The notes under the pieces are model-generated. The model made no database searches and was not told the DNA's origin. It was given only the letters and a program-made list of their open reading frames with translations. Below, piece after piece: positions 800-55,511 of a stretch of 64,000 bases of DNA. Each line of letters begins with the position of its first letter. The first letter of the stretch is position 1. Origin of the DNA: Clostridiales bacterium (GTDB lineage Bacteria > Bacillota > Clostridia > Lachnospirales > WQUN01); the NCBI GenBank assembly GCA_031287685.1, contig JAITSQ010000028.1, positions 609 through 64,608 on the forward strand, written 5' to 3'. The translations under genes and the position numbers were made by a program.

Positions 800-866
800 T
801 AAGAGCCTGTTCCTATAGGCAGAAACTCCGGATCCCGCGTTTATATCCTATGGGAACAGGCTCTAA
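800..866. repeat. Family A palindromic repeat, copy A1 (short form)
   Basis: Arms AAGAGCCTGTTCCTATAGG (801-819) and CCTATGGGAACAGGCTCT (847-864). Same arms occur at 5009-5253 and 14526-14593. Confidence 0.8.
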
Positions 867-2543: not shown

Positions 2544-2922
2544 ACACCCTGTACACAAACTCAAAAAGCAGCCCCGCGCAAAACCAAAGCGGGGCAAAAT
2601 CAAGCCTTATCACACCCCCTACGCTATACTTGGCGCCGCTGTAGTCCCACGGGCAGGCGTCAAACCGGCGCAGGGCGCTGCCCGCGGCGTATTCCACAGC
2701 GAAAATGCAGACGGAGTAAACCGCCCCGCGCGCGAAAATCGGATATTCCGACAAAAAATCCATAACCGGCAGAAAAAACGCCGCCAGCCCGTATATGAAA
2801 AACATCCACAGCGACGTGACGCAGGAGAGCCGCCCGTCCCGCCGCGCCACGGACGCGAGTCCCGTGAAAACAACCTCCATACACAGCCCCAGAAGCCCGT
2901 AAATAACAAAATTTTTAATCAT
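2536..2922 (-). CDS. Small polytopic membrane protein (PF06541 'ABC-transporter type IV'-like)
   Basis: Four hydrophobic segments; CPWDYSGAKYSVGGVIRLDF matches the WDYS signature of that family. Confidence 0.6.
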   Translation of the reverse strand: MIKNFVIYGLLGLCMEVVFTGLASVARRDGRLSCVTSLWMFFIYGLAAFFLPVMDFLSEYPIFARGAVYSVCIFAVEYAAGSALRRFDACPWDYSGAKYSVGGVIRLDFAPLWFCAGLLFEFVYRVFI

Positions 2923-3053
2923 ACGCTTATTTTGCGCAAAAACCTCGAAAAAATTATAAAACCTCTATTAAATTTTTCGGAAAAGGTGTATAATAGAAAT
3001 TAATGAATAATTTAAGAAATAACTAGACACGTGACGTGGCGTGATGAAAGGAA

Positions 3054-4094
3054 ATGCGTATGTTTGGGGCGGACATTGGAATAGACTTAGGAACGGCGAA
3101 CGTTCTTATTTATATCAAGGGGCAGGGCATAGTCCTGCAGGAGCCATCTGTCGTGGCCATCGATAAAAACAAGAATCAGCTGCTGGCCGTCGGGGACGAA
3201 GCGCGAAAGATGCTCGGCCGCACCCCCGGAAACATTATCGCCATAAGACCTCTTCGCGAAGGCGTTATTTCTGATTATGAAATTACCGAAAAAATGCTCC
3301 GTTATTTTATAGAAAAAGCCGTGGGCAAGTCGCTTCTCGTGCGTCCGCGCATTTCCGTCTGCGTCCCCTCCTCCGTGACGGAGGTAGAGCGCCGCGCTGT
3401 TGAGGACGCCACGCGCCAGGCCGGCGCGCGTCAGGTCTTTATAATTGAGGAGCCGGTGGCGGCGGCTATCGGCGCGGGGATTGACATATCCCGCGCGTGC
3501 GGCAGTATGGTTGTGGATATAGGCGGCGGCACGACGGACGTGGCCGTCATCTCTCTTGGCGGAACGGTCGTCAGCACCTCCCTGAAAGTCGCCGGGGATA
3601 ATTTTGACGAGTCAATCGTCCGCTATATGCGCAAAAAACACAGCCTGCTCATCGGCGAGCGCACTGCGGAGGATCTGAAAATAAACATCGGCACCGCTTT
3701 CACGCGCGCCAACCCGGTCTCAATGGACATTCGCGGACGCAACCTTGTCACTGGGCTGCCAAAGACAATCAGCGTTTCTTCTGAAGAAATGCAGGAAGCC
3801 CTTTCCGAGTCCGTCGCCGCCATTGTCGAGGCGGTTCATTCCGTACTCGAGCGCACCCCGCCGGAGCTTGCCTCCGACATAGCCGACCGGGGGATTGTTA
3901 TGACCGGCGGCGGCAGCCTCCTTTACGGGCTTGACAAACTTATAAAGAAAAAAACCGGAATCAACGCGATAATCGCGGAGGACGCCGTCAGCTGCGTCGC
4001 GATCGGCACCGGCAAATTTATAGAATACGCCGCCAGTATGAATCCGCACAATTTCAGCGAATCGCGCTCCTTCAGCAGCCGGCGCGGAAATTAA
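3054..4094 (+). CDS. mbl: Rod-shape determining actin homologue MreB/Mbl
   Basis: Motifs DIGIDLGTANVLIY, VVDIGGGTTDVAV and GIVMTGGGSLL; sits before flhO-flhP as in Bacillus. Confidence 0.9.
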   Translation: MRMFGADIGIDLGTANVLIYIKGQGIVLQEPSVVAIDKNKNQLLAVGDEARKMLGRTPGNIIAIRPLREGVISDYEITEKMLRYFIEKAVGKSLLVRPRISVCVPSSVTEVERRAVEDATRQAGARQVFIIEEPVAAAIGAGIDISRACGSMVVDIGGGTTDVAVISLGGTVVSTSLKVAGDNFDESIVRYMRKKHSLLIGERTAEDLKINIGTAFTRANPVSMDIRGRNLVTGLPKTISVSSEEMQEALSESVAAIVEAVHSVLERTPPELASDIADRGIVMTGGGSLLYGLDKLIKKKTGINAIIAEDAVSCVAIGTGKFIEYAASMNPHNFSESRSFSSRRGN

Positions 4095-4201
4095 AATTAT
4101 CCGCTAAATATTTTCCTCAAAACCGCCGATATTATATTTGAGGAATAACTAAAATTTTTACCGCTTAAAATATTCGCGCGACGCGGGAAAGTTGGAAAGC
4201 A

Positions 4202-4975
4202 ATGGTACGCGGTCTTTACACGTCAGGAATGGGTATGATTACGGCTATGAACAAGTTTGACGTCATATCAAACAACATAGCCAACGCCGGCACCACCGGC
4301 TATAAAAAGGACAACGTAATAACGCAGAGCTTCTCGGAGGAGCTTATGCGCCGTTTGAACGACCCCGCGCTTAATCAGATAAGCGCGCCGGACGTTAAAC
4401 TCGGCCCGGTTAGCCTTGGCGTTTTTGTGGACAACATCTTCACGGATTTTTCAACCGGCGCTTTTTCCGTCACGGATAACCCGCTTGACCTATGCATACA
4501 GGGGGATGGCTTTTTCGCCGCTTCCGTCGCCAATTCCGCCGGGGAGACCTCCGAAATGTACACCAGGGACGGTTCGCTGACCCTTCTTAACGGCCTTCTC
4601 GTGACGAATGGCGGCGCGCCCCTTGTCGGACAGAGCGGCAGCCCCATAACCGTCCCCAACGGCAATATCTCCATAAACGAACACGGCGACGTTTACGTCA
4701 ACGGCGAGTTTATCGACCGCTTGAAAATGGTGAGTTTCACCGACAACGCCTCCTTGCGCAAACACGGAGACAACTTTTACACAACGACCGAGCAGAGCCA
4801 GCAGGCTGACTTTAAGGGCGCCGTGGCTCAAGGGATCGCTGAAAAATCAAACGTCAACTCCGTGCGCGAAATGGTTGATATGATTGCGGTCAACCGCCTT
4901 TACGACGCTAATCAGCGCGTAATAACGACGGTTGACGCCACCCTTCAGCAAGCCGTCAGCGAAATAGGCAAATAA
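4202..4975 (+). CDS. flhO: Flagellar basal-body rod protein (FlgF/FlhO-like)
   Basis: N-terminal ISNNIANAGTTGYKKD and C-terminal VREMVDMIAVNRLYDANQRVI rod-protein motifs. Confidence 0.85.
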   Translation: MVRGLYTSGMGMITAMNKFDVISNNIANAGTTGYKKDNVITQSFSEELMRRLNDPALNQISAPDVKLGPVSLGVFVDNIFTDFSTGAFSVTDNPLDLCIQGDGFFAASVANSAGETSEMYTRDGSLTLLNGLLVTNGGAPLVGQSGSPITVPNGNISINEHGDVYVNGEFIDRLKMVSFTDNASLRKHGDNFYTTTEQSQQADFKGAVAQGIAEKSNVNSVREMVDMIAVNRLYDANQRVITTVDATLQQAVSEIGK

Positions 4976-5008
4976 TCCAACGATAAAACGCGTTCAGCGA
5001 AAAAACAT

Positions 5009-5253
5009 TAAGAACCTGTTCCCATAGGTATAAATGCCGGATCCCCTCGTTTTCGCTTCGCGAAAACGCTCGTGACGAGCGAATTTTTACAGCTTCAAGG
5101 CGCGATGAGCGCCGCGTACCCGTACTCGGTGTTTTTTCGTGCCTAATGCCGCACGAAAAAGCCACCTTCTTGGTACGCAAGCGAAGCGCAACGAATAAGC
5201 CGTAAAAATTCGCCGTAAAGTCGGCGTCTATATCCTATGGGAACAGGTTCTAA
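5009..5253. repeat. Family A repeat, copy A2 (long form, ~190 nt extra interior)
   Basis: Arms AAGAACCTGTTCCCATAGG (5010-5028) and CCTATGGGAACAGGTTCT (5234-5251). The interior holds a nested hairpin GCGAATTTTTAC (5079-5090) / GTAAAAATTCGC (5202-5213). Confidence 0.8.
5125..5172 (-). repeat. Hairpin module H, single copy inside A2 (reverse orientation)
   Basis: The reverse complement reads CAAGAAGGTGGC-TTTTTCGTGC-GGCATTAG-GCACGAAAAA-ACACCGAG. This is near-identical in layout and loop to module 1 of B1 (8430-8479). Confidence 0.7.
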
Positions 5254-5277
5254 TACCCCGAAAGGATTGTTTTATTT

Positions 5278-6114
5278 ATGATGCGCTCCCTCTGGACGGC
5301 CGCCTCCGGCATGACCTCCCAACAGCTTAACATCGACACGATTTCAAATAATCTGGCCAACGTGAACACCACGGGCTATAAAAAGGAAAGAATGGAGTTT
5401 AAGACGCTCCTTTACCAGACTATGCAGAGGGCGGACCAAGACCCCGCCAACACCCCCGCGCGCCCCGTCAACCTCCAGGTGGGCCACGGCGTGCGCCCTA
5501 TAGCCACCGCCCGCGCTTTCACAACGGGTTCGTTTCAGCGCACGGATAACGCGCAGGATTTCGCCATTGAGGGCGACGGCTTCTTTATAATCAACCGCGG
5601 CGCAGACCCGGCCACCGGGGAGGACGACATTACCTATACCCGAGACGGCTCCTTCAAAACGGCGGTCGTCGCCGACGGGACAATGCTGACCACCGCCGAG
5701 GGATACCCCGTTTTAAGCGTGGACGGCGAACCGATTGTAATCCCGCCGGAAGTGCTTATGAAAGACGTGACCGTTGACGAGAACGGTAATATGGGATACG
5801 CCAACGCCGAGGGCCAATATGAGGATTTAGGCTTCCAATTCGCGCTTGTGCAGTTTAGCAACCCGCAGGGGCTTGAATCCGTCGGCTCTAACCTTTTCAA
5901 GCAGACCGTGGCTTCCGGCGAGCCTCTTTCGGAGGCGGACGGCGAGACGAACAAAACAAGCCGCCTGCGCCAGAATTTTCTTGAGATGAGCAACGTGGCC
6001 GTCGCCAATGAAATGGTTGACCTGATTATAGCCCAGCGCGCGTACGACCTCAACTCAAAGGTCATCACCACAAGCGACGAGATGCTTCAGACCGCGAACG
6101 CTCTGAAGCGGTAA
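5278..6114 (+). CDS. flhP: Flagellar basal-body rod protein FlgG/FlhP
   Basis: Motifs ISNNLANVNTTGYKK and NEMVDLIIAQRAYDLNSKVITTSDEML. Confidence 0.9.
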   Translation: MMRSLWTAASGMTSQQLNIDTISNNLANVNTTGYKKERMEFKTLLYQTMQRADQDPANTPARPVNLQVGHGVRPIATARAFTTGSFQRTDNAQDFAIEGDGFFIINRGADPATGEDDITYTRDGSFKTAVVADGTMLTTAEGYPVLSVDGEPIVIPPEVLMKDVTVDENGNMGYANAEGQYEDLGFQFALVQFSNPQGLESVGSNLFKQTVASGEPLSEADGETNKTSRLRQNFLEMSNVAVANEMVDLIIAQRAYDLNSKVITTSDEMLQTANALKR

Positions 6115-6190
6115 CAATAACTGAACTTTCTTGCAATTTTAAGGAAAATTTTCACAAGAAGTATCCGGAAAGCGGGAAGGGAGTGTTTTT

Positions 6191-6571
6191 TTGGACATAT
6201 CGGCAATCGGCGGAGGTTCCGCTTTAACCGGCCAAGCCGCGCGGACGGCGCAAACAGCCGCGGACGAACAGCGCGCGAAGTCCTTTGAGGAGGCCCTCCA
6301 AACGGCGCGGACCCGCGAAGACGACGCGGGGCTTAAGGAAGCCTGCTTTGAGTTCGAGTCATATTTTATTCAAACAATGTTTCGCGAAATGCGCAAAACT
6401 ATTGACGATTCACATTCGTTGCTGCCAAAAAGCAACGCGGAGAACATTTTTACAGATATGCTCGACGAGGAATATTCAAAAAATCTGGCGAAATCAGGCG
6501 GCATAGGCTTGGCCAAAATGCTCTATTCTCAGATTTCAAAAGAAGAAACGGCGCGGAAGCCTTCCGTATAA
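6191..6571 (+). CDS. Rod-binding protein (FlgJ N-terminal-like, no muramidase domain)
   Basis: FESYFIQTMFREMRKT matches the rod-binding family motif; TTG start. Confidence 0.65.
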   Translation: MDISAIGGGSALTGQAARTAQTAADEQRAKSFEEALQTARTREDDAGLKEACFEFESYFIQTMFREMRKTIDDSHSLLPKSNAENIFTDMLDEEYSKNLAKSGGIGLAKMLYSQISKEETARKPSV

Positions 6572-10895: not shown

Positions 10896-12614
10896 ATGCC
10901 TCTTGACGGCACGGTGGTGGCGGCGGTCACGCGAGAGTTTCAGACTCTCGCCGCCGCCCGCATAGATAAAATATATCAGCCCGAAACGGACGAACTCATT
11001 ATCTCCGCGCGTGGGAACGGCGTTTCGCGCAAAATCCTGCTCTCGGCCGCTCCCTCCTGCCCCAGGGCGCATTTTACGCAGCTTAGCAAGCCCAACCCGG
11101 AGACCGCCCCGCAGTTCTGTATGGTGCTCCGCAAATTTTTGAGCGGCGGGCGGGTTTTATCCGTATCTCAGCCGGACTTTGAGCGCGTTATAGAGATACA
11201 AATAGAACAACTCGACGAAATGGGCGACCGCGTGACAAGAAGCCTCCTCATCGAAATTATGGGCAAGCACAGCAATATCATTCTCTGCGAGGGCGGCCGG
11301 ATTATCGACTCCATAAAACGCGTCCCGCACGAAAAAAGCAGCGTGCGGGAGGTCCTGCCGGGGCGGCCTTACCAGCCGCCGCCGTCTCAGGGCAAAACGA
11401 ACCCGCTCCTGCTTTCCTACGAAAACTTTATTGAAAATTTTTCCAAATATCCCGACGCGGAGACGGCCGTTTTTCAAGGCTACACCGGCATAAGCCCGGC
11501 GCTGGCCTCCGAAATTGTAAGCGCCGCGCAATCCGGAGAGCCGCGCGCGGTTTTCGAGTCCTTCTCTCTTGTTATGGAACGCGTTAAAAACGGAGACTTC
11601 AGCCCCGCCATTTATTCTGAAAACGGCAGAAACGTTGATTTTTCGGCAATCCCGCTGACCGCGTATAAACGCCCGGCCTCCCCGCGCCCCTCCGTCAGCG
11701 ATATGCTTGAGGCGTATTACGAAACGCGCGACCGCCAAGCGCGGGCCGCCGCCAAAGGCGCCGACCTCAAAAAACTGCTTAATAACCTGCTTTCTCGCGC
11801 CGCCGGCAAGCAGGAGGCGCACCGGCGCACCCTGCGCGAAATCTCCGGGCGTGAGCGCCTGAAGCTCCGCGGAGAGCTGATTACCGCGAATATTTACGCG
11901 CTGAAGGCAGGGATGACAGCGGCGGCGCTCGTGAATTTTTACAGCGAATCCGGAGAAACTGAGGAAATCCCGCTTGACCCGCAAAAAACGCCCGCCGAGA
12001 ACGCTCAGGCCTATTTTAAGCGGTACGCCAAGGAAAAACGCGCCTACGAAGCGGTGACGGCGCAAATCGACCAGACGGACGCGGAAATCTCCTACTTGGA
12101 ACAGGTGCGGCAAAACCTCCTTTTTTGCGAAGAGGAGGCCGCCCTTGACGAAATCCGGCAGGAGCTTCACGAAGAGGGATACATTAAAAAAGCGGCGAAG
12201 AAGCGGGGCGCAAAGCCCAGAAAGACCGCTCCTCTGCGCTTCCTGTCCTCCGACGGGCTTGAGATTTTTGTCGGGCGCAACAACCGCCAAAATGAGGAAC
12301 TGACTCTGAAAACGGCCGGAAATTCCGATATTTGGCTGCATACCAAGGTTATCCCCGGCTCCCACGTGATAATCCGCGCGGGAGGCGCCTCCGCGCCCGA
12401 CAGCACAATAGAAGAAGCGGCGCGGCTGGCCGCCTATTTCAGCAAAGGGCGCGGCGCGGGCCTTATCGCCGTGGACTACACCACGCGAAAAAACGTTAAA
12501 AAGCCGCCCGGCGCGAAGACCGGCATGGTAACCTACGACAATTACAAAACGGCTTACGTGGAGGCGGACGAAGCGATAATACAGCCGTTTCTGCTTAAAA
12601 ACATCGAAAATTAG
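10896..12614 (+). CDS. rqcH: Ribosome quality-control factor RqcH (NFACT / FbpA family)
   Basis: NFACT-N start (MPLDG...IDKIYQP) and C-terminal NFACT-R motif (DIWLHTKVIPGSHVIIR). Confidence 0.85.
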   Translation: MPLDGTVVAAVTREFQTLAAARIDKIYQPETDELIISARGNGVSRKILLSAAPSCPRAHFTQLSKPNPETAPQFCMVLRKFLSGGRVLSVSQPDFERVIEIQIEQLDEMGDRVTRSLLIEIMGKHSNIILCEGGRIIDSIKRVPHEKSSVREVLPGRPYQPPPSQGKTNPLLLSYENFIENFSKYPDAETAVFQGYTGISPALASEIVSAAQSGEPRAVFESFSLVMERVKNGDFSPAIYSENGRNVDFSAIPLTAYKRPASPRPSVSDMLEAYYETRDRQARAAAKGADLKKLLNNLLSRAAGKQEAHRRTLREISGRERLKLRGELITANIYALKAGMTAAALVNFYSESGETEEIPLDPQKTPAENAQAYFKRYAKEKRAYEAVTAQIDQTDAEISYLEQVRQNLLFCEEEAALDEIRQELHEEGYIKKAAKKRGAKPRKTAPLRFLSSDGLEIFVGRNNRQNEELTLKTAGNSDIWLHTKVIPGSHVIIRAGGASAPDSTIEEAARLAAYFSKGRGAGLIAVDYTTRKNVKKPPGAKTGMVTYDNYKTAYVEADEAIIQPFLLKNIEN

Positions 12615-12663
12615 CCGAAAATCGGCGTTCGCGCCCCAGCGCGCGTACCATAAACCCGGTTGG

Positions 12664-13200
12664 TCATTGCGCGCCGGCGGCCCCCTCGCTTTCCCACGCT
12701 TGAGAAAACTCCCGCTCGGCAAACAGCGAAGCCAGCCCGCTGATTTGCTTCAGGCGCAGAAGCTCGTCCGTATCCATACCGATATTCTTCATAATCCATT
12801 CGTCGCTTGCGCCAGACTCGACTAACCTCGCGACAATATCCACCATAAGATTAATTGAGTGGACGCCCCTGGCTCGGTTATGCCTGATTGTGCTCGCGAC
12901 GCGGTTGGCGAAGGGTTTGTTGATTACGGATACCGGCAGGCAATTTTTTTCGCGCTCAGCGATTTCCGGGCAGCTTTTCATCGCCATATACCGGTGAAAC
13001 CCGTCCACAATCTCGTAGCGGTCGATATCCGCGAGATAATAGCAAACGATAGGCATAGTGTAGCCGTCCTCCAGAATGGACTTAATCAGGAGCCTCATTT
13101 CAGGCGGCGGCACGCGGTTTGGGTTGTAAGCGTTGGCGTCTATTTTCTCAATGGAAACCGGGCGCACAGAGTAGACCGGGCTTACAAAATGCTCTCCCAT
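12664..13200 (-). CDS. ParB/sulfiredoxin-domain protein (IbrB / DndB-like)
   Basis: Motifs YNPNRV...ILEDGYTMPIV and IVDGFHRY. ATG 13200 is preceded by GGGAGGGAGG. The track ORF start at 13296 would overlap the upstream gene by 115 nt. Confidence 0.7.
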   Translation of the reverse strand: MGEHFVSPVYSVRPVSIEKIDANAYNPNRVPPPEMRLLIKSILEDGYTMPIVCYYLADIDRYEIVDGFHRYMAMKSCPEIAEREKNCLPVSVINKPFANRVASTIRHNRARGVHSINLMVDIVARLVESGASDEWIMKNIGMDTDELLRLKQISGLASLFAEREFSQAWESEGAAGAQ

Positions 13201-14495
13201 ATCGCTATCGCCTCCCTCCCCTTCTGCAGCTCGTCTTTCGTCTGGGAAAAGCCCATATATTTGCAGGAAGTATCGTTCTTCATAATAGTGACGCACATTC
13301 GCTTATAGCTCGGCAGGAGCCTGAAATCCTTCAGCTTGACGTCGTCCGGATATTCGGCGAAGCGGACGACTTCATACTCGCTCTTGTATTTCCGGTTGCC
13401 GGAGGGCTTTCCGAGGCTCTCAAACGCGATTCCGGCCCGCCGAAGCTCCGCCACGGTTCTTATGGGCAAGGCTCCGCCCTTTTCCAGCCAGTACCAGCAA
13501 GAGGATTCAAATTTACGCTCGTAAATATCCCGCGTTTTCCGCGGCAGGGTTTCTAAGAGGAATTTTACATAGGTTTTCCACGTATGCCCTTTGGGGAGGG
13601 AAATATCCCTGTAGCCGACGGCTTTCGTGCCGCCGTATATCGCTCCGAAATTCGCGCCGTTCACCCGCCCGACCAAGCGGCTCCAAGTGTTCGGCTCAAT
13701 CGCCCGGTAGAGTTTAAGCGCCTCCACGCCGCATTCGTGAAACGGGTTCGCCACCCGCATTTCCCCTATCGGGACCCCGGCCAGATAATACAGGTCATAA
13801 AGTTTGTTATAGTCAAAGCCAAACCGGGCGTTAGCCGTCCAGACGTCCTCCACCATCCAGTCGTACAAGGGGTAAAAGTTAAAAATATTCATGGATATGC
13901 GCGTGCTGTAAGCAATCCTGCCGAACATCCGGAAGGTATTGCTTCGCGTTACGGCGTGATAGCGGTTCAGACTCTCTTGAGAGCGTATCCCCACCAAAAC
14001 GGCGGTTCTTTTCGCGTTATTTTTCTTGTGCAGCCATTTCCCGAATTTAGTCTGAAAAACATAATCCGACATACCGACCTCGAAAAAATCAAAGTCGTGA
14101 TTATCAATCGTAATAGAGCCTTCCGGCCTTTCGCGGAGCCATATGTCCTTTTCCTCCGGATTCCACGGCAGCCAGGTCGATTGATGCATAGACACGCCGC
14201 ACGAAGCCGAAACCGGCATACATAGGTGGTAGTAGTCAAAGTAGGGATATTTCCGCATACAGCGGGCTACATAGTCTATAGTATGCTGATAGTTGCCCTC
14301 ATAATCAATATGATAAACGGAAACCTTAGAGGACGGGCGGCGGCGCGCGTAATAAAGGTTCACAAGCTCCAGCAGCAGCCCGGAGTCCTTCCCGCCGGAA
14401 AAAGACACGATTACGTGGTCAAATTTTGAGAAAATATATGTAAGCCTCTCCATAAAAGCGTCCAGCACATTTTTATCAATATATTTTTTCCCCAT
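13182..14495 (-). CDS. PP-loop ATP-pyrophosphatase, PAPS-reductase family (IbrA / DndC-like)
   Basis: PP-loop VIVSFSGGKDSGLLL plus a long C-terminal extension; overlaps the ParB-like gene by 19 nt. Confidence 0.8.
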   Translation of the reverse strand: MGKKYIDKNVLDAFMERLTYIFSKFDHVIVSFSGGKDSGLLLELVNLYYARRRPSSKVSVYHIDYEGNYQHTIDYVARCMRKYPYFDYYHLCMPVSASCGVSMHQSTWLPWNPEEKDIWLRERPEGSITIDNHDFDFFEVGMSDYVFQTKFGKWLHKKNNAKRTAVLVGIRSQESLNRYHAVTRSNTFRMFGRIAYSTRISMNIFNFYPLYDWMVEDVWTANARFGFDYNKLYDLYYLAGVPIGEMRVANPFHECGVEALKLYRAIEPNTWSRLVGRVNGANFGAIYGGTKAVGYRDISLPKGHTWKTYVKFLLETLPRKTRDIYERKFESSCWYWLEKGGALPIRTVAELRRAGIAFESLGKPSGNRKYKSEYEVVRFAEYPDDVKLKDFRLLPSYKRMCVTIMKNDTSCKYMGFSQTKDELQKGREAIAIWESIL

Positions 14496-14525
14496 ACACC
14501 GGCTCCCACTCGCGAAAAATTCACT

Positions 14526-14593
14526 TAGAACCTGTTCTCATTAGGTAGAAAGGCGGGAATCCGGCGTTTATATCCTATGAGAACAGGTTCTTA
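14526..14593. repeat. Family A repeat, copy A3 (short form)
   Basis: Arms TTAGAACCTGTTCTCATTAGG and CCTATGAGAACAGGTTCTTAA. Confidence 0.8.
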
Positions 14594-14643
14594 ATATTAT
14601 AGCGGATTTTTCATCAAAAATCTACAATTTTCGTGAAAATTCG

Positions 14644-14679
14644 CTAAAAAATCCGGCGCGGTTTAGAACGCGCCGGATT
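14644..14679 (-). terminator. Intrinsic terminator of the sugar ABC operon
   Basis: Stem AATCCGGCGCG / CGCGCCGGATT with an 8-nt loop, followed by T6 on the minus strand. Confidence 0.7.
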
Positions 14680-14712
14680 AAGTAAATTTAGCGTTCTCCT
14701 CGCGCCGGGGGG

Positions 14713-14934
14713 TTACAGGCCCAGGGCGGACTCAATCTTTTTGATAAACTTATCGTCGTCTGTCACGACAAGCACGGGTTCGTGAAAATCAAGCGCGAGC
14801 AACCCGAGCACGGACTTCGCGTCGGCTATGGCGCCCTTGTGGTCGTGCACGCCGATTTCATATTCCGATTCCCACGCCAAGTGCATAAATTTCGACAGTT
14901 CGCTCGACGTTTTAATTACTATGGACTGTTGCAT
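14713..14934 (-). CDS. Short HPr-like protein lacking the His-15 motif
   Basis: GAIADAKSVLGLLAL resembles the HPr Ser46 region (KSIMGVMSLG). No GxHARPA motif was found. Confidence 0.4.
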   Translation of the reverse strand: MQQSIVIKTSSELSKFMHLAWESEYEIGVHDHKGAIADAKSVLGLLALDFHEPVLVVTDDDKFIKKIESALGL

Positions 14935-14954
14935 TTTAACCTCCTAAAATCTTT

Positions 14955-16151
14955 TTAGCGTCCCTTTCCGCGGGTCCGCACGTCGAACGCCACAGCGATT
15001 ATGAATATAATGCCCTTAACGAGATACTGCACGGAAATATCAACGCCCATAAGGCCCATCCCGTTTGTCAGGGACATAATTATAAGCACGCCGATAATTG
15101 TGTTAGTCACTTTGCCGATACCGCCGGATACCGCCGTTCCGCCGATATACGCGGAGGCTATGGCGTCCATCTCAAAGCCTAGCCCGGCCGTGGGAGTGGC
15201 CGACCCGATGCGGGAGGTATACAAGATGCCGCCGAGCGCCGCCAATACGCTCATAGAACAGAAGGCGAAAAGCGTCACCTTTTTAACGTCAACGCCGGAA
15301 AGCTCCGCCGCCTGGTCATTTCCGCCAATACCGTAAATATAGCGCCCAAGCCGAGTCTTGTTCAGCATATAATTATACGCGAAAAGCACCACGCCGACAA
15401 TCACCGCCGTCCAGGGCAGACCACGGGAACCCTTGGAAAACGCCAGGGTGCGGATTATAACCATTATAATCGCCGACATAAACACAAGGGTGAATATAAA
15501 TACGGGCATCGACACAACCTCAAAGTTGTATTTAAGCCTGTTCACGCGCTCCCGGATTTTTGACCATATAAGCAGCGCCACCGCCGCCACGCCCAATAGC
15601 AGCGTCAGGATATGCGTGGTGTCCGTCCCGGCGGCGTGCTGAACAAAGTCGGGTATGAAGCTGCTTGAAAGCGCCTTGAACTTTTCATCCGGAATAATTA
15701 TCGCGCCGGTTTTTTGCAGGGACATACTCAGCAAACCCCTGAAAATGAACATCCCCGCGAGCGTCGTAACAAAAGCCGGCACGCCCAGCCGCGTCACCAG
15801 GACGCCTTGGTAAAGCCCGATGAGAAGCCCCATAATAAGGACAAGGATTATCGCCACCCAGACGTTAAGGTGCCTCTGCGTCATCAAAATCGCGGCGACG
15901 GCGCCAGAAAAGCCCGCCAGATAGCCTATCGAAAGGTCGATATGGCGCAGAATAAGAATCAGGGTCATACCAATAGCCAGAACCGCCACATAGCCCGCCT
16001 GATTAATCAAGCTGGCTATATTGTTAGCCTTCACAAAGTTGCCGCCCGTCTTAACGGAAAAAAATACCATTATTATAACAAGGGCGATATACATCATATA
16101 ATCTCTGATATTTGTTTTAATTAAGCCCGCTACTTCTTTTCCGATTTTCAT
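14955..16151 (-). CDS. Monosaccharide ABC transporter permease (CUT2; XylH/GguB-like)
   Basis: About 10 TM segments of the branched-chain/ribose permease type; operon context. Confidence 0.85.
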   Translation of the reverse strand: MKIGKEVAGLIKTNIRDYMMYIALVIIMVFFSVKTGGNFVKANNIASLINQAGYVAVLAIGMTLILILRHIDLSIGYLAGFSGAVAAILMTQRHLNVWVAIILVLIMGLLIGLYQGVLVTRLGVPAFVTTLAGMFIFRGLLSMSLQKTGAIIIPDEKFKALSSSFIPDFVQHAAGTDTTHILTLLLGVAAVALLIWSKIRERVNRLKYNFEVVSMPVFIFTLVFMSAIIMVIIRTLAFSKGSRGLPWTAVIVGVVLFAYNYMLNKTRLGRYIYGIGGNDQAAELSGVDVKKVTLFAFCSMSVLAALGGILYTSRIGSATPTAGLGFEMDAIASAYIGGTAVSGGIGKVTNTIIGVLIIMSLTNGMGLMGVDISVQYLVKGIIFIIAVAFDVRTRGKGR

Positions 16152-16190
16152 CTATACGCCTCCCAGTTTATTAAAATTCAGAGCGCGGTC

Positions 16191-17720
16191 TTATGAGTTA
16201 ACCGCCAGCGCCATAACTTTTTCTTCATTCGCTTCCTCCGCCGAAAGCTCTCCCGTTATTTTCCCCGCGCTCATTACATAGAGGCGGTCGCTCATTCCCA
16301 GAATTTCGGGAAGCTCCGAGGAAATCATAATAATGCTCATACCTTCCTCAACGAGCTTATTCATAAGCGAATAAATTTCAAATTTCGCGCCGACGTCTAT
16401 GCCGCGCGTGGGTTCGTCCAAAATCAGTATGTTCGGTTTCGCGAAAAGCCACTTGGCTATCTGAACTTTCTGCTGGTTGCCGCCGGAAAGCTGGCCCACT
16501 TTCTGCAAAATCGACGAAGATTTTATATTTATGGATTTTTTGAATTCACTGACTACTTTTATTTCTTCGTTTTCGTTTATCGCAAGCCCTTCCTGGAGCG
16601 CCTCAAGGTTGGCCAGCGTCACGTTGTATCTTATGTCCTGCATAAGCACAAGGCCGTTGCCCTTGCGGTCCTCCGAAACATAGGCTATACCGGCTTCTAT
16701 GGCGGATTTTGGATTCGGAAAGCTCTTTTTTTCGCCGTTTACAAAGACTTCGCCGGAACGGATTTTATAACCGGTGGGGTTGCCGAAAACGGAGAGCGCG
16801 CACTCCGTCCGCCCCGCGCCCATAAGCCCCTGAAGGCCGACGATTTCCCCTTTGCGCACGTTAAAAGACACGTCGTCAAGGATGCGGCGGCCGGTGGCGG
16901 GGTTATCCACAGTCCAATTTTTAACTTCAAAAAACACCTCGCCGATGTCGATTTTTTCGCGCTTCGGGTAGATATTCTCAATTTCGCGCCCCACCATATG
17001 CTTGATTATCTCGGCTTCGGTGACGGGTTTTTCGTGCGCGTCGAGAGAGCACACCGTCGTGCCGTCCCGGAGAATCGTAAGCGTATCCGCTATCGCGGTA
17101 AGCTCCTTCAGCTTATGGGAAATCATAATACAGGTGACGCCCTGTTCCTTAAGCTCACGTATGAGGCCAAGCAGGTTCGCGCTGTCGTCCTCGTTAAGAG
17201 CAGCGGTCGGCTCGTCAAGTATAAGCAGCTTTACGTTTTTACTGAGCGCTTTGGCAATCTCCACGAGCTGCTGATTGCCGACGCCAAGCGCTTTTACCTT
17301 TGTGGACGGGTCGATATTGAGGCGCACCTTCTTGAGCGCTTCCCCGGCGCGGACTATTGTTTCGTTCCAGTCTATGCCCATCGAACCCATAATTTCGTGG
17401 GCAAAGAAAATATTTTCATAAATGGACAGCTCCGGGATAAGCGCCAGCTCCTGATAAATTATGGCTATTCCCTTCGCCTCGCTGTCCGAGATTGACTTAA
17501 ACTGCTGAATTTCCCCGTTATAGACTATATCACCCTCATACGTGCCGTATTTCCACACGCCTGACAAAACCTTCATAAGAGTGGATTTGCCTGCGCCGTT
17601 TTCTCCTATGAGACAGTGGATCTCGCCGCGCTTGACCTTGAAGTTGATGTTGTCAAGCGCCAAGACCCCGGGGAACCGCTTGGTTATACCTTTCATTTCA
17701 AGAATATAATCTTCCGCCAT
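16191..17720 (-). CDS. Sugar ABC transporter ATP-binding protein (two NBDs)
   Basis: Walker A GENGAGKST, LSGGNQQK signature and a duplicated NBD. Start taken at MAEDYILEMKGI (17720). Confidence 0.9.
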   Translation of the reverse strand: MAEDYILEMKGITKRFPGVLALDNINFKVKRGEIHCLIGENGAGKSTLMKVLSGVWKYGTYEGDIVYNGEIQQFKSISDSEAKGIAIIYQELALIPELSIYENIFFAHEIMGSMGIDWNETIVRAGEALKKVRLNIDPSTKVKALGVGNQQLVEIAKALSKNVKLLILDEPTAALNEDDSANLLGLIRELKEQGVTCIMISHKLKELTAIADTLTILRDGTTVCSLDAHEKPVTEAEIIKHMVGREIENIYPKREKIDIGEVFFEVKNWTVDNPATGRRILDDVSFNVRKGEIVGLQGLMGAGRTECALSVFGNPTGYKIRSGEVFVNGEKKSFPNPKSAIEAGIAYVSEDRKGNGLVLMQDIRYNVTLANLEALQEGLAINENEEIKVVSEFKKSINIKSSSILQKVGQLSGGNQQKVQIAKWLFAKPNILILDEPTRGIDVGAKFEIYSLMNKLVEEGMSIIMISSELPEILGMSDRLYVMSAGKITGELSAEEANEEKVMALAVNS

Positions 17721-17807
17721 TAAGTCACGCACCTTTACAGTAAAAATAAAAAAGTATGTAAAGCCGCCGCCCTGTGAAAACAAGGCGGCAGTTTTACGAA
17801 AGATATC

Positions 17808-18968
17808 TTACTCAAGCCCTGTGAATTGGCTCGCGTCATAGTAGCCGGTGTCTATTATGGCCTCTTTTACGTTGTCCTTAGTGACGGTCTTAACGTCAAG
17901 TATCTTTGAGGGAACCTCCTTCGAGCCATTGTTCTGGGTGGTGGTGGTTTCCGGGGTTTCGCCGTTTAACACCTGAGAAGCGAGCTTAATCGCCGCTTCG
18001 GTAAGCTCCCTTGTGTCCTTGAACACCGTCATAGACTGCTTGCCGTCGATGATGTACTGAACTGACGGAATTTCAACGTCCTGCCCGGTGATTTCGTAAT
18101 GCGTCACAGCCGTGTCGGCCGCGAAGGTGTCGGCGATAGAACGGGCGGTGCCGTCGTTCGGCGCGAGAATAAACACGTTGCCCTTCAGCTTCGCGTCCGC
18201 CGAGGTCAGATTGGCTTCCGCCTTAGTCTTGGCGACATTAAAATCCCAGTCCGTGGTAATCTGGCCGAGAATCTTGCCAAGCTCTTCGCGGTCAAGCTCC
18301 GCTTTGTCGGCCAGCGCCAGAGCTTCGGAGGAGTTGGCTATAACGAAAGTGCCGTCTTGAATTTTCGGCTGGAGCACGCTCCAGGCGCCGGCAAAGAAGT
18401 CGAAAGCGTTGTTGTCCGTCGCCGCGCCGCTGTAGAGGTAAAGCGGGTTGCCGTTGCCGGTGGCCTTGCTTAAGAGATATTCGCCCTGAGCCTCGCCAAC
18501 GGCCTTGGAGTCGAAACCTACATAATAATCAAGGTTTTCGGTGTTCGTAATGAGACGGTCGTAGGCTATAACGGTCGCTCCGCTCTGCTTGGCCTCGTCA
18601 ACAGCGCCGGCCGCCGCCGTGCCGTCCTGGGGGCAGATGATGATTACTTTCGCGCCGCGCCCGACAAGCGCTTCGACGTTGCTGCGCTCCGTCGCGGAGG
18701 AACCCTGCGAGAACAGAACCGAACTCGTGAAACCCGCTTGGGTCAGGCCGTTCTCAAAACGGGTCTGATCCTGAATCCAACGCGGCTCGTCCTTGGTGGG
18801 CAGGATTATGCCGACTTGAACGTCGCCGGAGGAGTTGCTCGCGTTGTTGTCCTGGGCGGGCGGATTGCCGTTGCCGCTATTCGGGTCAGCCGGGTTGCCC
18901 GCGCCCCCGCCGCAACCAACGGACAGCGCCAGAAGTGACGCCGCGACGATACTAAAGAACTTCTTCAT
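17808..18968 (-). CDS. Sugar ABC substrate-binding lipoprotein (ChvE/XylF-like)
   Basis: Lipobox LSVGC and a periplasmic-binding-protein type I fold pattern. Confidence 0.8.
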   Translation of the reverse strand: MKKFFSIVAASLLALSVGCGGGAGNPADPNSGNGNPPAQDNNASNSSGDVQVGIILPTKDEPRWIQDQTRFENGLTQAGFTSSVLFSQGSSATERSNVEALVGRGAKVIIICPQDGTAAAGAVDEAKQSGATVIAYDRLITNTENLDYYVGFDSKAVGEAQGEYLLSKATGNGNPLYLYSGAATDNNAFDFFAGAWSVLQPKIQDGTFVIANSSEALALADKAELDREELGKILGQITTDWDFNVAKTKAEANLTSADAKLKGNVFILAPNDGTARSIADTFAADTAVTHYEITGQDVEIPSVQYIIDGKQSMTVFKDTRELTEAAIKLASQVLNGETPETTTTQNNGSKEVPSKILDVKTVTKDNVKEAIIDTGYYDASQFTGLE

Positions 18969-19102
18969 TACAAAAACATCTCCTTTTAGTTTTTTGGAGC
19001 GCGCCGCAGCGCGCGCCGGTTGTCCTATTAATTATATTACAAAAATGATAAACTTACAAAACAAATTTTACAAATTCGCGAAAAATTTTTCGCTTGATTA
19101 TT

Positions 19103-20104
19103 TTACGCCTTGAGCGCCCCCTCCACGGCTACGGCCACGGCTACCGTCGCGCCGACCATCGGATTGTTACCCATACCGAGGAAGCCCATCATTTCAACGT
19201 GCGCGGGTACGGAGCTGCTTCCGGCGAACTGCGCGTCGGAGTGCATACGGCCCATCGTGTCGGTCATACCGTAAGAAGCCGGGCCGGCCGCCATATTGTC
19301 CGGGTGAAGCGTGCGGCCCGTGCCGCCGCCCGAAGCCACGGAGAAATATTTTTTGCCGAGATCGACACATTCCTTTTTATAGGTGCCCGCGACGGGGTGC
19401 TGGAAGCGCGTCGGGTTTGTGGAGTTGCCCGTAATGGACACGTCCACGCCCTCCTTATGCATAATAGCCACGCCTTCGCGCACGTCGTCCGCGCCGTAGC
19501 AGCGAACGGTTTTGCGCTCACCCTGAGAATACTCGATTTCCTTTATTATGTTCAGCTCCCCGGACATATAATCGAACTGGGTCTGTACATAAGTAAAGCC
19601 GTTTATGCGGGAGATAATCTGCGCCGCGTCCTTGCCCAGGCCGTTGAGGATAACTCGCAGAGAGGATTTCCGGCTTTTGTTGGCGTTCCGGGCTATGCCT
19701 ATCGCGCCCTCCGCCGCCGCGAAGGACTCGTGTCCCGCCAGAAAAGCGAAACACTTCGTGTCGTCGCGAAGGAGCATCGCGCCGAGGTTGCCGTGGCCAA
19801 GCCCTACTTTCCTGTCCTCCGCCACTGAACCCGGTATGCAGAAGGACTGGAGGCCTATTCCTATATCCTCCGCGGCTTCGGCGGCGCCTCCGCGAGCCTT
19901 TTTCAGCGCGATAGCCGCGCCCACGACATACGCCCAGCAGGCGTTTTCAAAGGCAATCGGCTGAATCCCTTTTGTTATATTGTAGGGATCAATCCCCTTG
20001 TCCTTGCAGATTTTTTCCGCTTCCTCAATAGAGCCGATTCCGTTCGCGGACAGGGCCGCGTTTATTTTGTCTATGCGGCGCTCGTAGCTTTCAAATAATG
20101 ACAT
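19103..20104 (-). CDS. GGGtGRT family protein (function unknown)
   Basis: Contains the eponymous SGGGTGRTLHPD motif. Confidence 0.8.
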   Translation of the reverse strand: MSLFESYERRIDKINAALSANGIGSIEEAEKICKDKGIDPYNITKGIQPIAFENACWAYVVGAAIALKKARGGAAEAAEDIGIGLQSFCIPGSVAEDRKVGLGHGNLGAMLLRDDTKCFAFLAGHESFAAAEGAIGIARNANKSRKSSLRVILNGLGKDAAQIISRINGFTYVQTQFDYMSGELNIIKEIEYSQGERKTVRCYGADDVREGVAIMHKEGVDVSITGNSTNPTRFQHPVAGTYKKECVDLGKKYFSVASGGGTGRTLHPDNMAAGPASYGMTDTMGRMHSDAQFAGSSSVPAHVEMMGFLGMGNNPMVGATVAVAVAVEGALKA

Positions 20105-27690: not shown

Positions 27691-27796
27691 CACCCGCGTT
27701 GGTTAAATGTTTATGGGAATACGGCCATTGACGACTTTTGTGTTGTCGTGGCCTTTTATATTGCGTCCGCGGAAAACGACCTACAGGAGGGGTTTT

Positions 27797-55317: not shown

Positions 55318-55349
55318 CGGCGCGCTCCAATCGTTTAGAATCTGTACTC

Positions 55350-55449
55350 ATAGAGCAATTCCATGTTTGACCGGCTTGTTTCGAGCCGAAAATCGCGGGC
55401 TTCAACGCGTTTTCGGCGATGAAAGAAGCCGGTCAAACGGAATTGCTCT
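55350..55449. mobile_element. Family B MITE-like element, copy B4 (minimal 100-nt form)
   Basis: Near-perfect long hairpin TAGAGCAATTCCATGTTTGACCGGCTT...AAGCCGGTCAAACGGAATTGCTCTA. Confidence 0.85.
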
Positions 55450-55511
55450 AGTATAAAGGCCGCCTCGCTTAGCCTTTTCGCCTATTTAATGGCACATTTC
55501 TAATTTCTATC

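Follow-up and report, generated by a model that had tools for sequence, protein, structure and literature searches.

A stand-alone IbrA/IbrB-family gene pair in a Clostridiales genome and its possible role in DNA modification

INTRODUCTION

In the Dnd phosphorothioation system, the DNA-modifying enzyme DndC is partnered by the ParB-like protein DndB, which is a dispensable regulator. DndB/DndC (also SspD and BrxP) combine a PP-loop ATPase of the PAPS_reduct superfamily with a protein of ParB/sulfiredoxin (Srx) fold. In the Dpd system, the ParB-like DpdB likewise partners the DNA-modifying DpdA (as summarised in PMC12839542). A further pair of this kind is found in Escherichia coli as YbdN/YbdM (K-12 b0602/b0601) and as the IbrA/IbrB proteins of genomic islands (ECOR-9, O157 SpLE1-type). 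Here we describe a minus-strand gene pair, ibrA and ibrB (ibrAB), located in a 64,000-nucleotide (nt) stretch of a Clostridiales bacterium genome (assembly GCA_031287685.1, contig JAITSQ010000028.1). This whole stretch is called the window below, and coordinates refer to it unless another locus is named.

The family has been met several times from different sides. According to the title of Sandt et al. 2002 (cited in PMC6008420), the E. coli ECOR-9 island genes owe their name to the activation of prophage eib genes. The K-12 operon ybdNM is under repression by CitR/YbdO, a LysR regulator encoded next to it, and YbdM is listed as a predicted transcription factor (PMC9068703); in a study of its deletion and overexpression it is called 'completely uncharacterized' (PMC8764527). 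In Listeria monocytogenes, lmo1309 (ParB) and lmo1310 (DUF3440) belong to the core genome and are listed in TASmania as a putative toxin-antitoxin pair, by guilt by association (PMC7020466). Papers on viromes assign the gene to CysH-type sulfur metabolism (bioRxiv 2021.01.05.425418; PMC12323421), one of them noting a clade with DUF3440. Finally, a 2026 preprint describes candidate defence operons that combine a nucleoid protein with a 3'-phosphoadenosine 5'-phosphosulfate (PAPS) reductase, with a ParBc protein in one cluster.

RESULTS

The window carries an IbrA/IbrB-family pair

The first gene of the pair, ibrA (13182..14495, minus strand), encodes 437 amino acids (aa) from its ATG, as supported by the open reading frame (ORF) call, Pfam and PHROG matches and a structure model. 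The second, ibrB (12664..13200, minus strand), encodes 178 aa from the ATG at 13200, as supported by the ORF call, homologue starts, profiles and a model. In the ORF list the short gene is entered as 12664..13296 (minus strand), and a GTG-initiated reading would give 210 aa. This longer reading was discarded because all 32 aligned homologues begin at the Met of ATG 13200 (MGEHFVSPVY...). Both are genuine genes and not chance ORFs: each has thousands of homologues and a strong PHROG match (PHROG 2302 at 2.7e-102 for IbrA, PHROG 2159 at 4.6e-73 for IbrB).

The end of ibrA and the start of ibrB overlap by 19 nt (13182..13200, minus strand, from the ORF list), which suggests translational coupling. 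The same 19-nt overlap is found at all close homologues (loci L001, L002, L003-L007 and L008), and overlaps of 4-28 nt occur in distant ones. Shine-Dalgarno-like sequences were read ahead of both starts on the minus strand: GGGAGGGAGG (13211..13220), within ibrA and 10 nt ahead of the ibrB ATG, and GGGAG (14503..14507), 7 nt ahead of the ibrA ATG.

IbrA is composed of a PP-loop ATP pyrophosphatase domain (approximately residues 1-240) followed by DUF3440 (residues 240-424). In Pfam, it matched PAPS_reduct (PF01507; E 1.5e-12, 48.3 bits, cut-off 22.5) and, over positions 1-181 of 182, DUF3440 (PF11922; E 1.1e-78, 263.6 bits, cut-off 25). IbrB matched ParB_N with E 2.5e-05 and 24.6 bits, slightly under the cut-off of 26.3 bits. 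The same PAPS_reduct + DUF3440 architecture and the same ParB partner characterize YbdN/YbdM and the IbrA/IbrB island proteins. In E. coli as in the window, the genes overlap in the order A then B and the invariant motifs are held in common, with identities of 34% between IbrA and YbdN and 48% between IbrB and YbdM (37% between IbrA and a Klebsiella plasmid copy). Enterobacterial members differ from ours by an N-terminal extension of about 40 aa in IbrB, and by the lack in IbrA of about 30 residues from the middle part of DUF3440 and of C92, C99 and C255. In addition, E. coli ybdNM adjoins the gene of its dedicated LysR repressor, citR, whereas the window pair has no adjacent regulator.

Names attached to homologues tell the same story. 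More than 4800 clusters of IbrA homologues are named DUF3440 or IbrA, names given to Firmicutes homologues by some sources read 'Co-activator of prophage expression IbrA', and RefSeq names the E. coli IbrB-type partners 'IbrB-like domain-containing protein'. At 50% clustering the family is small, with 335 clusters at E <= 1e-30 among 1.84 billion representatives. A look-up of the window IbrA by exact protein sequence returned no record. We aligned seven diverse members (the window, E. coli, the Klebsiella plasmid copy, a Streptococcus phage and three Firmicutes), among which approximately 75 IbrA columns are invariant. The invariant motifs are SFSGGKDS, G-x-R-x-x-E-S-x-x-R, Y-P-x-Y-D-W and a C-terminal R-x-C...N-D-x-x-C in IbrA, and V-D-G-F-H-R, T-I-R-H-N-R-A-R-G and G-M-D-x-D-E-x-L-R-L-K-Q in IbrB.

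We therefore consider it nearly certain that the locus is a stand-alone, horizontally mobile IbrA/IbrB-family module, of the family that includes E. coli YbdN/YbdM and the IbrAB island genes. An initial annotation, made from the DNA letters alone, had described two minus-strand genes with a 19-nt overlap, a ribosome-binding-like sequence ahead of ATG 13200, a 437-aa protein with SFSGGKDSG and a long C-terminal extension, and a protein of about 178 aa with a ParB/Srx N-domain and IVDGFHRY, and had assigned them to the IbrA/IbrB type. All of this agrees with our results: the overlap is kept in close homologues, the extension is DUF3440, and architecture, alignment with YbdN/YbdM and homologue names concur. 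For the profiles, PF01507 and DUF3440 were reached and ParB_N was missed narrowly, the fold model (see below) supporting the latter domain. As such the locus is an ordinary one, one more copy of a widespread module already recognised by Pfam, SEED, PHROGs and NCBI. It is the family that matters more than the locus, being very conserved and moving among chromosomes, large virulence or resistance plasmids and phages.

The pair is distinct from DndC, CysH and partition ParB

Curated models were used to place the two proteins more precisely. IbrA scored 25.8 bits against DndC (TIGR03183, cut-off 290.4), and this over residues 163-237 only, about 75 residues of the common PAPS_reduct core. It scored 20.7 bits against cysH TIGR00434 (cut-off 165.1), 16.5 bits against cysH PRK02090 (cut-off 154) and 19.9 bits against CysD (cut-off 195). 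IbrB scored 19.5 bits against parB_part (TIGR00180, cut-off 58.45) and 22 bits against noc (TIGR04285, cut-off 315); its best NCBIfam match, SerK, reached 22.1 bits (cut-off 380). Since these models were missed by a wide margin, IbrA, as judged from its sequence, is not DndC or CysH and IbrB is not a partition ParB; IbrB is probably not DndB either. In PADLOC-DB v2, IbrA gave weak matches to DndC (33 bits, residues 163-237), BrxP and methyltransferase (MTase) models over the same 75 or so common-core residues. IbrB gave no match there at E up to 0.01 (whether PADLOC has a DndB model was not checked). No known anti-phage system of PADLOC-DB v2 was recognised at the locus, which carries no partner genes.

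The parallel with DndC/DndB drawn by the initial annotation thus stands at the superfamily level only, IbrA missing the DndC model and IbrB having no PADLOC match. The motif D-G-x-H-R is probably common to IbrB and DndB. The locus has no DndA, DndD or DndE, DndC has no DUF3440, and the IbrA-IbrB pairing is obligatory, unlike that of DndB within Dnd. The analogy that a ParB-like protein governs a DNA-modifying PP-loop enzyme is nevertheless plausible.

With CysH and CysD, IbrA has in common the PP-loop alpha/beta fold and the Pfam PAPS_reduct domain, but it falls far under their thresholds, has a canonical ATP-type SGGKDS loop and carries the extra 200-aa DUF3440. There is no sulfur operon near, and no sulfate-assimilation gene within about 10 kb on either side of ibrAB. 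The cysH score and the canonical loop rule out the possibility, raised earlier, that IbrA is a bona fide CysH belonging to a sulfur operon, and the curated CysH models give no support to the reading of the phage enzyme as a sulfur-metabolism gene.

IbrA is predicted to be an adenylating PP-loop enzyme

The PP-loop of IbrA, SFSGGKDSG (residues 31-39; 14379..14405, minus strand), read in the sequence as the loop binding the nucleotide alpha/beta-phosphates, is invariant in 38 close homologues and is also found in the E. coli, Klebsiella and phage members. Enzymes that bind ATP with release of pyrophosphate are marked by a canonical SGGKDS loop, whereas the loop of true PAPS reductases is degenerate. 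On the basis of this motif, IbrA should be an adenylating enzyme and not a PAPS reductase.

The predicted structure of IbrA (predicted local distance difference test score, pLDDT, 74) matched NcsA, CysD, PAPS reductases, TtuA, TilS, FAD synthase and LarE in Foldseek, the top matches being the tRNA-modifying PP-loop enzymes NcsA, TtuA (5ztb) and TilS with tRNA. By sequence, the best PDB matches of IbrA are distant ones to FAD synthase. PDB sequence searches found no solved structure for a sequence relative of IbrA or IbrB beyond such distant matches.

A second conserved region, identified from the alignment and the model, is the C-terminal motif RMCVTIMKNDTSC (residues 399-411; 13263..13301, minus strand), whose residues R399, C401, N407, D408 and C411 do not vary between the window protein and its E. 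coli, Klebsiella plasmid and phage counterparts. It extends into a low-confidence tail (pLDDT below 50 for residues 407-437), so that in the model the part carrying N-D-x-x-C is probably flexible. We then examined 80 viral IbrA relatives, taken from IMG/VR contigs (L168-L247). The GKDS of the PP-loop and R171, E174, S175 and R178 are conserved in 80/80, N407 and D408 in 79-80/80, C411 in 73/80, C92 in 71/80 and C401 in 54/80. An iron-sulfur cluster or Cys-pair formed by C92, C99, C255, C401 and C411 had been considered; it is weakened because C411 alone (C92 partly) is broadly conserved. Longer IbrA relatives were also searched for domain fusions. Nothing informative was found, the one ABC_tran fragment being a probable gene-call artefact.

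IbrB combines a ParB-type N-domain with a DNA-binding domain

The model of IbrB (pLDDT 80) matched KorB, ParB, Noc and Spo0J over 140-167 of its 178 residues, with the transcriptional repressor KorB as best structural match. The match spans the nucleotide-binding N-domain and the helix-turn-helix (HTH) DNA-binding domain; these predicted-structure matches confirm the ParB fold, at the level of a model. The N-domain by itself matched sulfiredoxin, SbnI and a serine kinase (SerK) in Foldseek. IbrB also matches PHROG 498, a phage family annotated as DNA methyltransferase.

In a HMMER alignment to Noc (7ol9), IVDGFHRY (residues 64-71; 12988..13011, minus strand) corresponds in position to ParB box II, GERR(W)R, with GFHRY opposite the CTP-binding GERRW and NPN opposite QPR. 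Within this motif, all 32 aligned homologues keep D66, G67, H69 and R70, and an H-R dyad of this kind is seen in sulfiredoxin and DndB. The second invariant motif of the family, STIRHNRARG (residues 103-112; 12865..12894, minus strand), was recognised from alignments including E. coli YbdM. Compared with the CTP clamps ParB/Spo0J, Noc and KorB, the IbrB model superposes on their N-terminal nucleotide-binding and HTH domains, but GFHR, NPN and RHNRAR stand where these have GERR, QPR and ENLQR, and the C-terminal dimerisation domain, a ParA partner and a parS context are all missing.

In phages the pair is recurrently joined to an SNF2 gene

Phage genomes carry the same pair with 33-50% identity and the same invariant residues. 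In the virulent Streptococcus thermophilus phage D4276, the gene order is AcrIIA5, one small ORF, gp30, the IbrA-like gp31 and the IbrB-like gp32, overlapping or abutting, and gp30 is a 411-aa SNF2-family helicase (SNF2-rel_dom + Helicase_C). An SNF2-IbrA-IbrB trio also follows the lysis genes at the end of streptococcal prophages, and in Flavobacterium phage FCV-11 the SNF2 gene is followed by a ParB-like and then an IbrA-like gene (phage FCL-2 is a further case from this genus). This three-gene module was located at 4779-7765 of L158 (D4276), 7490-10513 of L165 and 3270-6134 of L163, and in the IMG/VR contigs.

Among the 80 viral contigs, an IbrB relative adjoins IbrA on the same strand in 78, with A then B in 55 and B then A in 23. 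A SNF2 gene of approximately 400 aa lies directly upstream of the pair in 21 of the 68 viral loci with enough upstream sequence. The small SNF2 gene is thus often directly upstream in phages, some of which have ParB before IbrA, whereas the 64 kb of the window contain no helicase partner. In the B-then-A class, the pair can directly precede the large terminase gene, as in Mycobacterium phage Athena (L161, 1-5236) and Faecalibacterium phage Taranis (L162, 4294-9773); a ParB-like/PAPS-reductase-like pair directly before terminase genes is also present in L217, L233 and L235. Phage DNA methyltransferase genes often sit just before terminase. In Athena, two 'ParB-like nuclease domain' genes flank a PAPS-reductase-like gene which has no DUF3440.

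SNF2 enzymes translocate on double-stranded DNA. Because of this, and because the three-gene unit recurs, differently ordered in Streptococcus and Flavobacterium phages, the SNF2 linkage is good contextual evidence that ibrAB acts on DNA. Our literature searches returned no paper naming the SNF2-IbrA-IbrB linkage.

The pair is conserved without a conserved neighbourhood

The closest IbrA (81% identity) comes from a Clostridiales metagenome-assembled genome (MAG), where its neighbours are a germination protease/spore-coat group and a GyrI-like gene. In Hungatella (72%) the gene is found between a LacI-regulated sugar locus and a sigma-54 activator, in Bacillus sp. HSf4 (71%) between a WxL surface-protein cluster and nitrate reductase, and in Enterococcus (66%) in a variable region with insertion sequence (IS) fragments. 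Overall, the closest homologues (81-63% identity) are from Clostridia, Bacillus, Enterococcus and Lactococcus and have unrelated neighbourhoods. The Firmicutes cassettes (GCA_031265685, Bacillus sp. HSf4, Enterococcus, Lactococcus and Listeria lmo1310/lmo1309) are lone pairs with 63-81% full-length identity and the 19-nt overlap, and their neighbours are wholly different in each genome; compared with them, the window is new in host and insertion site only. For IbrB, homologues at 73% and 71% identity were found in the alphaproteobacterium Devosia (P0239) and in a Caudoviricetes record (P0227), respectively. By comparison, the best relatives of the adjacent RqcH are only 49-52% identical (GTDB species genomes and JGI metagenomes). 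Conservation of ibrAB without a conserved neighbourhood fits horizontal spread under strong constraint, since high identity is kept across phyla with no neighbourhood in common.

Relatives of ibrAB are present on 732 plasmid records, mostly of Klebsiella and E. coli (in an example IncFIB/IncHI1B plasmid, the pair is flanked by the fec and iro siderophore genes), and in 226 phage records. ybdNM was found in 5415 of 5426 complete E. coli genomes, and about 2080 E. coli records carry a second, island-borne paralogue at least 80% identical to the plasmid type. In one E. coli strain, this island paralogue adjoins the gene of a PerC-family regulator, and IS elements are near on both sides.

Some features of these other loci may be mentioned. 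ibrAB is found beside WxL/WxLIP surface-protein clusters in two unrelated genera (L002, Bacillus sp. HSf4, 2415-6560; L003-L007, Enterococcus, 3297-4361 and 13440-19788). This adjacency brings to mind the surface immunoglobulin-binding proteins to which IbrAB is linked in E. coli, and may simply reflect a common location in variable regions. In Bacillus sp. HSf4, 2.1 kb without a called gene lie directly upstream of ibrA (L002, 7853-10000).

Is the window pair an accessory insertion?

Judging from homologue sequences and contexts, ibrAB is likely an accessory insertion at this site, because its nearest homologues lie in wholly different neighbourhoods and its identity across phyla is very high. 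The initial annotation had proposed such an insertion, and had seen codons more A/T-rich than those of the neighbours. The insertion finds support in the homologues, as just said, and composition gives no mark of it. The G+C content (GC) is 50.5% for ibrA and 54.0% for ibrB, against 57-60% for tkt and rqcH and 49.6-51.5% for the neighbouring ATP-binding cassette (ABC) transporter genes. With a window gene mean of 56.0 ± 3.2, ibrA is 1.7 standard deviations (sd) below. At third codon positions, its GC of 64.6% is 0.6 sd below the window value (67.9 ± 5.5), and its codon-usage distance is typical for the gene length. Composition and codon usage were therefore rejected as signs of a foreign origin: the values lie within the range of the window, the ABC genes are equally low, and the A/T-rich codons were not confirmed as a distinction.

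None of 148 rqcH loci of other species has ibrAB, tkt or the ABC operon in synteny. Because the closest RqcH is only 49-52% identical, an empty-site comparison is impossible and argues neither for nor against insertion. Two public runs, one of them a termite gut metagenome, contain the region on short contigs from a strain about 97% identical, which also has the cassette; none of these contigs skips it. The nearest matches of the RqcH scan are, like one of the two runs, termite-gut MAGs or metagenomes, so that the window is probably derived from an uncultured member of the Clostridia living in the termite gut. Flanking repeats were considered as insertion scars and rejected, only short repeats at chance level being present. 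The window contains no tRNA gene.

A proposed DNA-modification mechanism and its alternatives

We tentatively favour, at somewhat below even chances, a covalent DNA modification that is guided by IbrB and catalysed by IbrA. Family membership, mobility, gene structure, motifs, folds and phage contexts have been shown above; the complex, its DNA substrate and its chemistry are what we infer from here on. IbrA and IbrB, made in fixed proportion from overlapping genes, would act as a complex on DNA. IbrB, with its ParB/Srx-fold domain in which G-x-H-R (Srx/DndB-like) stands for GERR, and with its ParB-type HTH, would bind DNA and a nucleotide (ATP or another nucleoside triphosphate, NTP) and recruit or gate IbrA. 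IbrA would spend ATP to adenylate a target group on the DNA, with no reduction of PAPS, and the adenylate would be displaced, possibly by sulfur or another nucleophile. The nearly invariant C-terminal K-N-D-x-x-C tail of IbrA may be this nucleophile or a sulfur carrier. The resulting covalent mark would alter how proteins read the DNA: in cells it might change the expression of horizontally acquired genes, and in phages and plasmids it might serve escape from, or imposition of, restriction. DNA is proposed as the target because the N-domain and the HTH of the ParB-type DNA clamps are both represented in the IbrB model, because SNF2 genes lie upstream in phages, because of the PHROG 498 match and because ParB-like proteins accompany DNA-modifying enzymes elsewhere (DndB, DpdB). 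A role in conflict or regulation is suggested by the proximity of AcrIIA5, the position at prophage ends and before terminase, the plasmid records and the eib-based name.

Several observations weigh against this proposal. Adjoining the window ibrAB there is no sulfur donor, DndD/E-like partner, glycosylase or restriction gene. No SNF2 gene was found in the fetched flanks of the window, of the other cellular loci, of E. coli ybdNM or of the Klebsiella plasmid copy. IbrB has neither the box I arginine nor the GERR motif of ParB. The Cys residues of IbrA are not universal, C401 being Ala in 23 of the 80 viral relatives and C92, C99 and C255 being missing, as said, from enterobacterial IbrA. On fold alone, RNA would be an equally natural substrate of IbrA, its best fold matches being tRNA-modifying enzymes. 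Finally, literature and PDB searches returned no biochemical, genetic-mechanism or structural study of the family.

The last fold argument leads to a different target. IbrA might modify RNA, most likely tRNA, as TtuA, NcsA, TtcA and TilS do, with IbrB as an NTP-dependent helper, and mobile elements would in this way retune translation. Besides the Foldseek matches, the core status of the pair in E. coli (5415/5426 genomes) and in L. monocytogenes (PMC7020466) is as might be expected of a housekeeping modifier. However, the Pfam and NCBIfam matches of IbrA fall in the PAPS_reduct branch (CysH, CysD, DndC, FAD synthase) and not with TtcA/TilS; Pfam gives no sign of an RNA-binding domain such as THUMP or PUA; IbrB carries an HTH of the ParB type that binds double-stranded DNA; and the linkage to a double-stranded DNA translocase in phages favours DNA, all of which makes RNA modification improbable. 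Nor does the target have to be a nucleic acid. IbrA could, like ATP sulfurylase or FAD synthase, hand AMP to a small acceptor, with IbrB working like the ParB/Srx-fold kinases SerK and SbnI or like sulfiredoxin, so that the two produce or break down a nucleotide-derived metabolite or signal, a reading that takes in the view of phage PAPS reductases as sulfur auxiliary metabolic genes. The treatment of the gene as CysH-type in phage papers (bioRxiv 2021.01.05.425418; PMC12323421) and the candidate defence operons of the 2026 preprint, with a nucleoid protein and PAPS reductase and with or without ParBc, are in line with it, as are FAD synthase as best PDB sequence match, SerK as best NCBIfam match of IbrB and the presence of SbnI, SerK and sulfiredoxin in the Foldseek list. 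Yet the scores for cysH (20.7 against 165.1 bits), CysD (19.9 against 195) and SerK (22.1 against 380) are far too low, IbrB has a full HTH which the kinases lack, no sulfur-assimilation gene is near, and the SNF2 linkage is left unexplained; small-molecule chemistry is thus also improbable.

DNA may, on the other hand, be bound and left unmarked. IbrB would then be a nucleotide-gated regulator, similar to KorB or VirB, that opens or counter-silences promoters of acquired genes, and IbrA would sense or supply its ligand. The naming phenotype, prophage eib activation as given in a title (cited in PMC6008420), speaks for such a transcription switch, together with KorB as best structural match of IbrB, the PerC-family regulator adjoining an E. 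coli island copy, the listing of YbdM as predicted transcription factor and the dedicated repression of ybdNM by CitR (PMC9068703). We consider it unlikely, as it leaves unexplained the constant coupling of IbrB to a PP-loop enzyme whose catalytic core never varies, the association with SNF2 in phages, and the extreme conservation across phyla (73% in Devosia) without common target promoters. A toxin-antitoxin pair, with IbrA as the toxin and the ParB-like protein as the antitoxin, would account for two overlapping genes on mobile elements and has been listed in TASmania for lmo1309/lmo1310 by guilt by association (PMC7020466). It is very improbable: deletion of ybdM in E. coli raised fitness by 1-2% and its overexpression cost only 10% in growth rate (PMC8764527), the gene order varies (A-B or B-A), and both proteins are conserved far beyond typical toxin-antitoxin pairs.

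To return to DNA modification, a more specific form of it is that IbrA/IbrB is a minimal, self-contained two-protein DNA-modification machine, aided by SNF2 in phages, which writes a covalent mark not described so far. We regard this form as doubtful. If it is true, the IbrAB mark could be something other than Dnd/Ssp phosphorothioation, such as a backbone or base modification derived from a thio or adenylyl group, and it would serve cells, plasmids and phages of many phyla (including E. coli with its core ybdNM) in controlling gene expression or in evading or imposing restriction. The SNF2 partner, the anti-CRISPR proximity and the pre-terminase position point to a testable direction, namely DNA-directed ATP-dependent modification. 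For experiments on it, E. coli ybdNM or the S. thermophilus phage module offer a better start than an uncultured termite-gut host.

Flanking genes and other elements of the window

To the left of the pair lie transketolase (tkt) and then rqcH (NFACT domains, 1.2e-142), which is convergent with ibrAB; 49 nt separate its stop from that of ibrB. In this gap the terminator scan called a terminator-like hairpin, GCCGATTTTCGGC, with a T-rich tail (12614..12626, minus strand). To the right, upstream of ibrA, a 73-aa ORF (14713-14934, minus strand) ends a sugar ABC transporter operon. It has no Pfam or PHROG match; by eye, its DAKSVLGLLAL resembles the HPr phosphocarrier family. Another terminator-like hairpin, CCGGCGCG-N8-CGCGCCGG with a T-run (14646..14676, minus strand), which ends the ABC operon and the 73-aa ORF, was read in the sequence and is absent from the output of the terminator scan. 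Adjacent to ibrAB, we found no restriction, Dnd, Ssp, other modification, cysteine desulfurase, helicase or integrase gene. The initial annotation was therefore right in describing an isolated cassette with no Dnd, restriction or modification neighbour, and in placing an operon terminator and a hairpin repeat upstream of it.

The latter is a 67-nt hairpin (14526..14592, minus strand), found by inverted repeat search 30 nt upstream of the ibrA start and being a copy of a dispersed repeat. It probably lies in the ibrA 5' leader or overlaps the transcription start. Its RNA fold has -35.6 kcal/mol (z -2.9), and the hairpin arm has 6 matches in the window against 0.02 expected. Just upstream of it, a TATAAT hexamer (14596..14601, minus strand) was read as a possible -10 element, with no good -35 at 17 nt; it was not called by the promoter scan and is weak.

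Copies of the dispersed repeat are located at 802-866 (plus), 5010-5252 (plus) and 14526-14592 (minus), the middle one with an insert of about 170 nt. Their arms are AGAACCTGTTCYCATAGG and CCTATGRGAACAGGTTCT, and part of the loop is conserved (AAA-N2-CCGGATYCC). All three end 18-30 nt upstream of start codons, in the same orientation relative to the gene, and the genes behind them code for an HD-domain hydrolase, a flagellar rod protein and IbrA, which are not related to one another. Because of the latter, the hairpin was rejected as a signal of a shared regulon; it is also absent from other ibrAB loci. As a known RNA it was rejected too, no Rfam family reaching threshold (best 27 bits against 42). 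The repeat could be an element similar to miniature inverted-repeat transposable elements or repetitive extragenic palindromes (MITE/REP-like), providing an outward promoter or the hairpin of a 5' leader. An arm of similar sequence, ATGAATACAGGTTCT, was seen about 300 nt upstream of ibrA in locus L001 (5530-5545).

At a distance from the pair, a long imperfect hairpin (CATAGAGCAATTCC...GGAATTGCTCTAG; 55330-55450) lies between divergent dnaX-like and ftsY-like genes, and is similar at its left end to the dispersed repeat's arm, with 2 mismatches in 15. The window also contains a cobalamin riboswitch (RF00174; 27425-27661, plus strand), which with 39.1 bits exceeds the gathering score and precedes a 1029-aa ORF (27707-30796).

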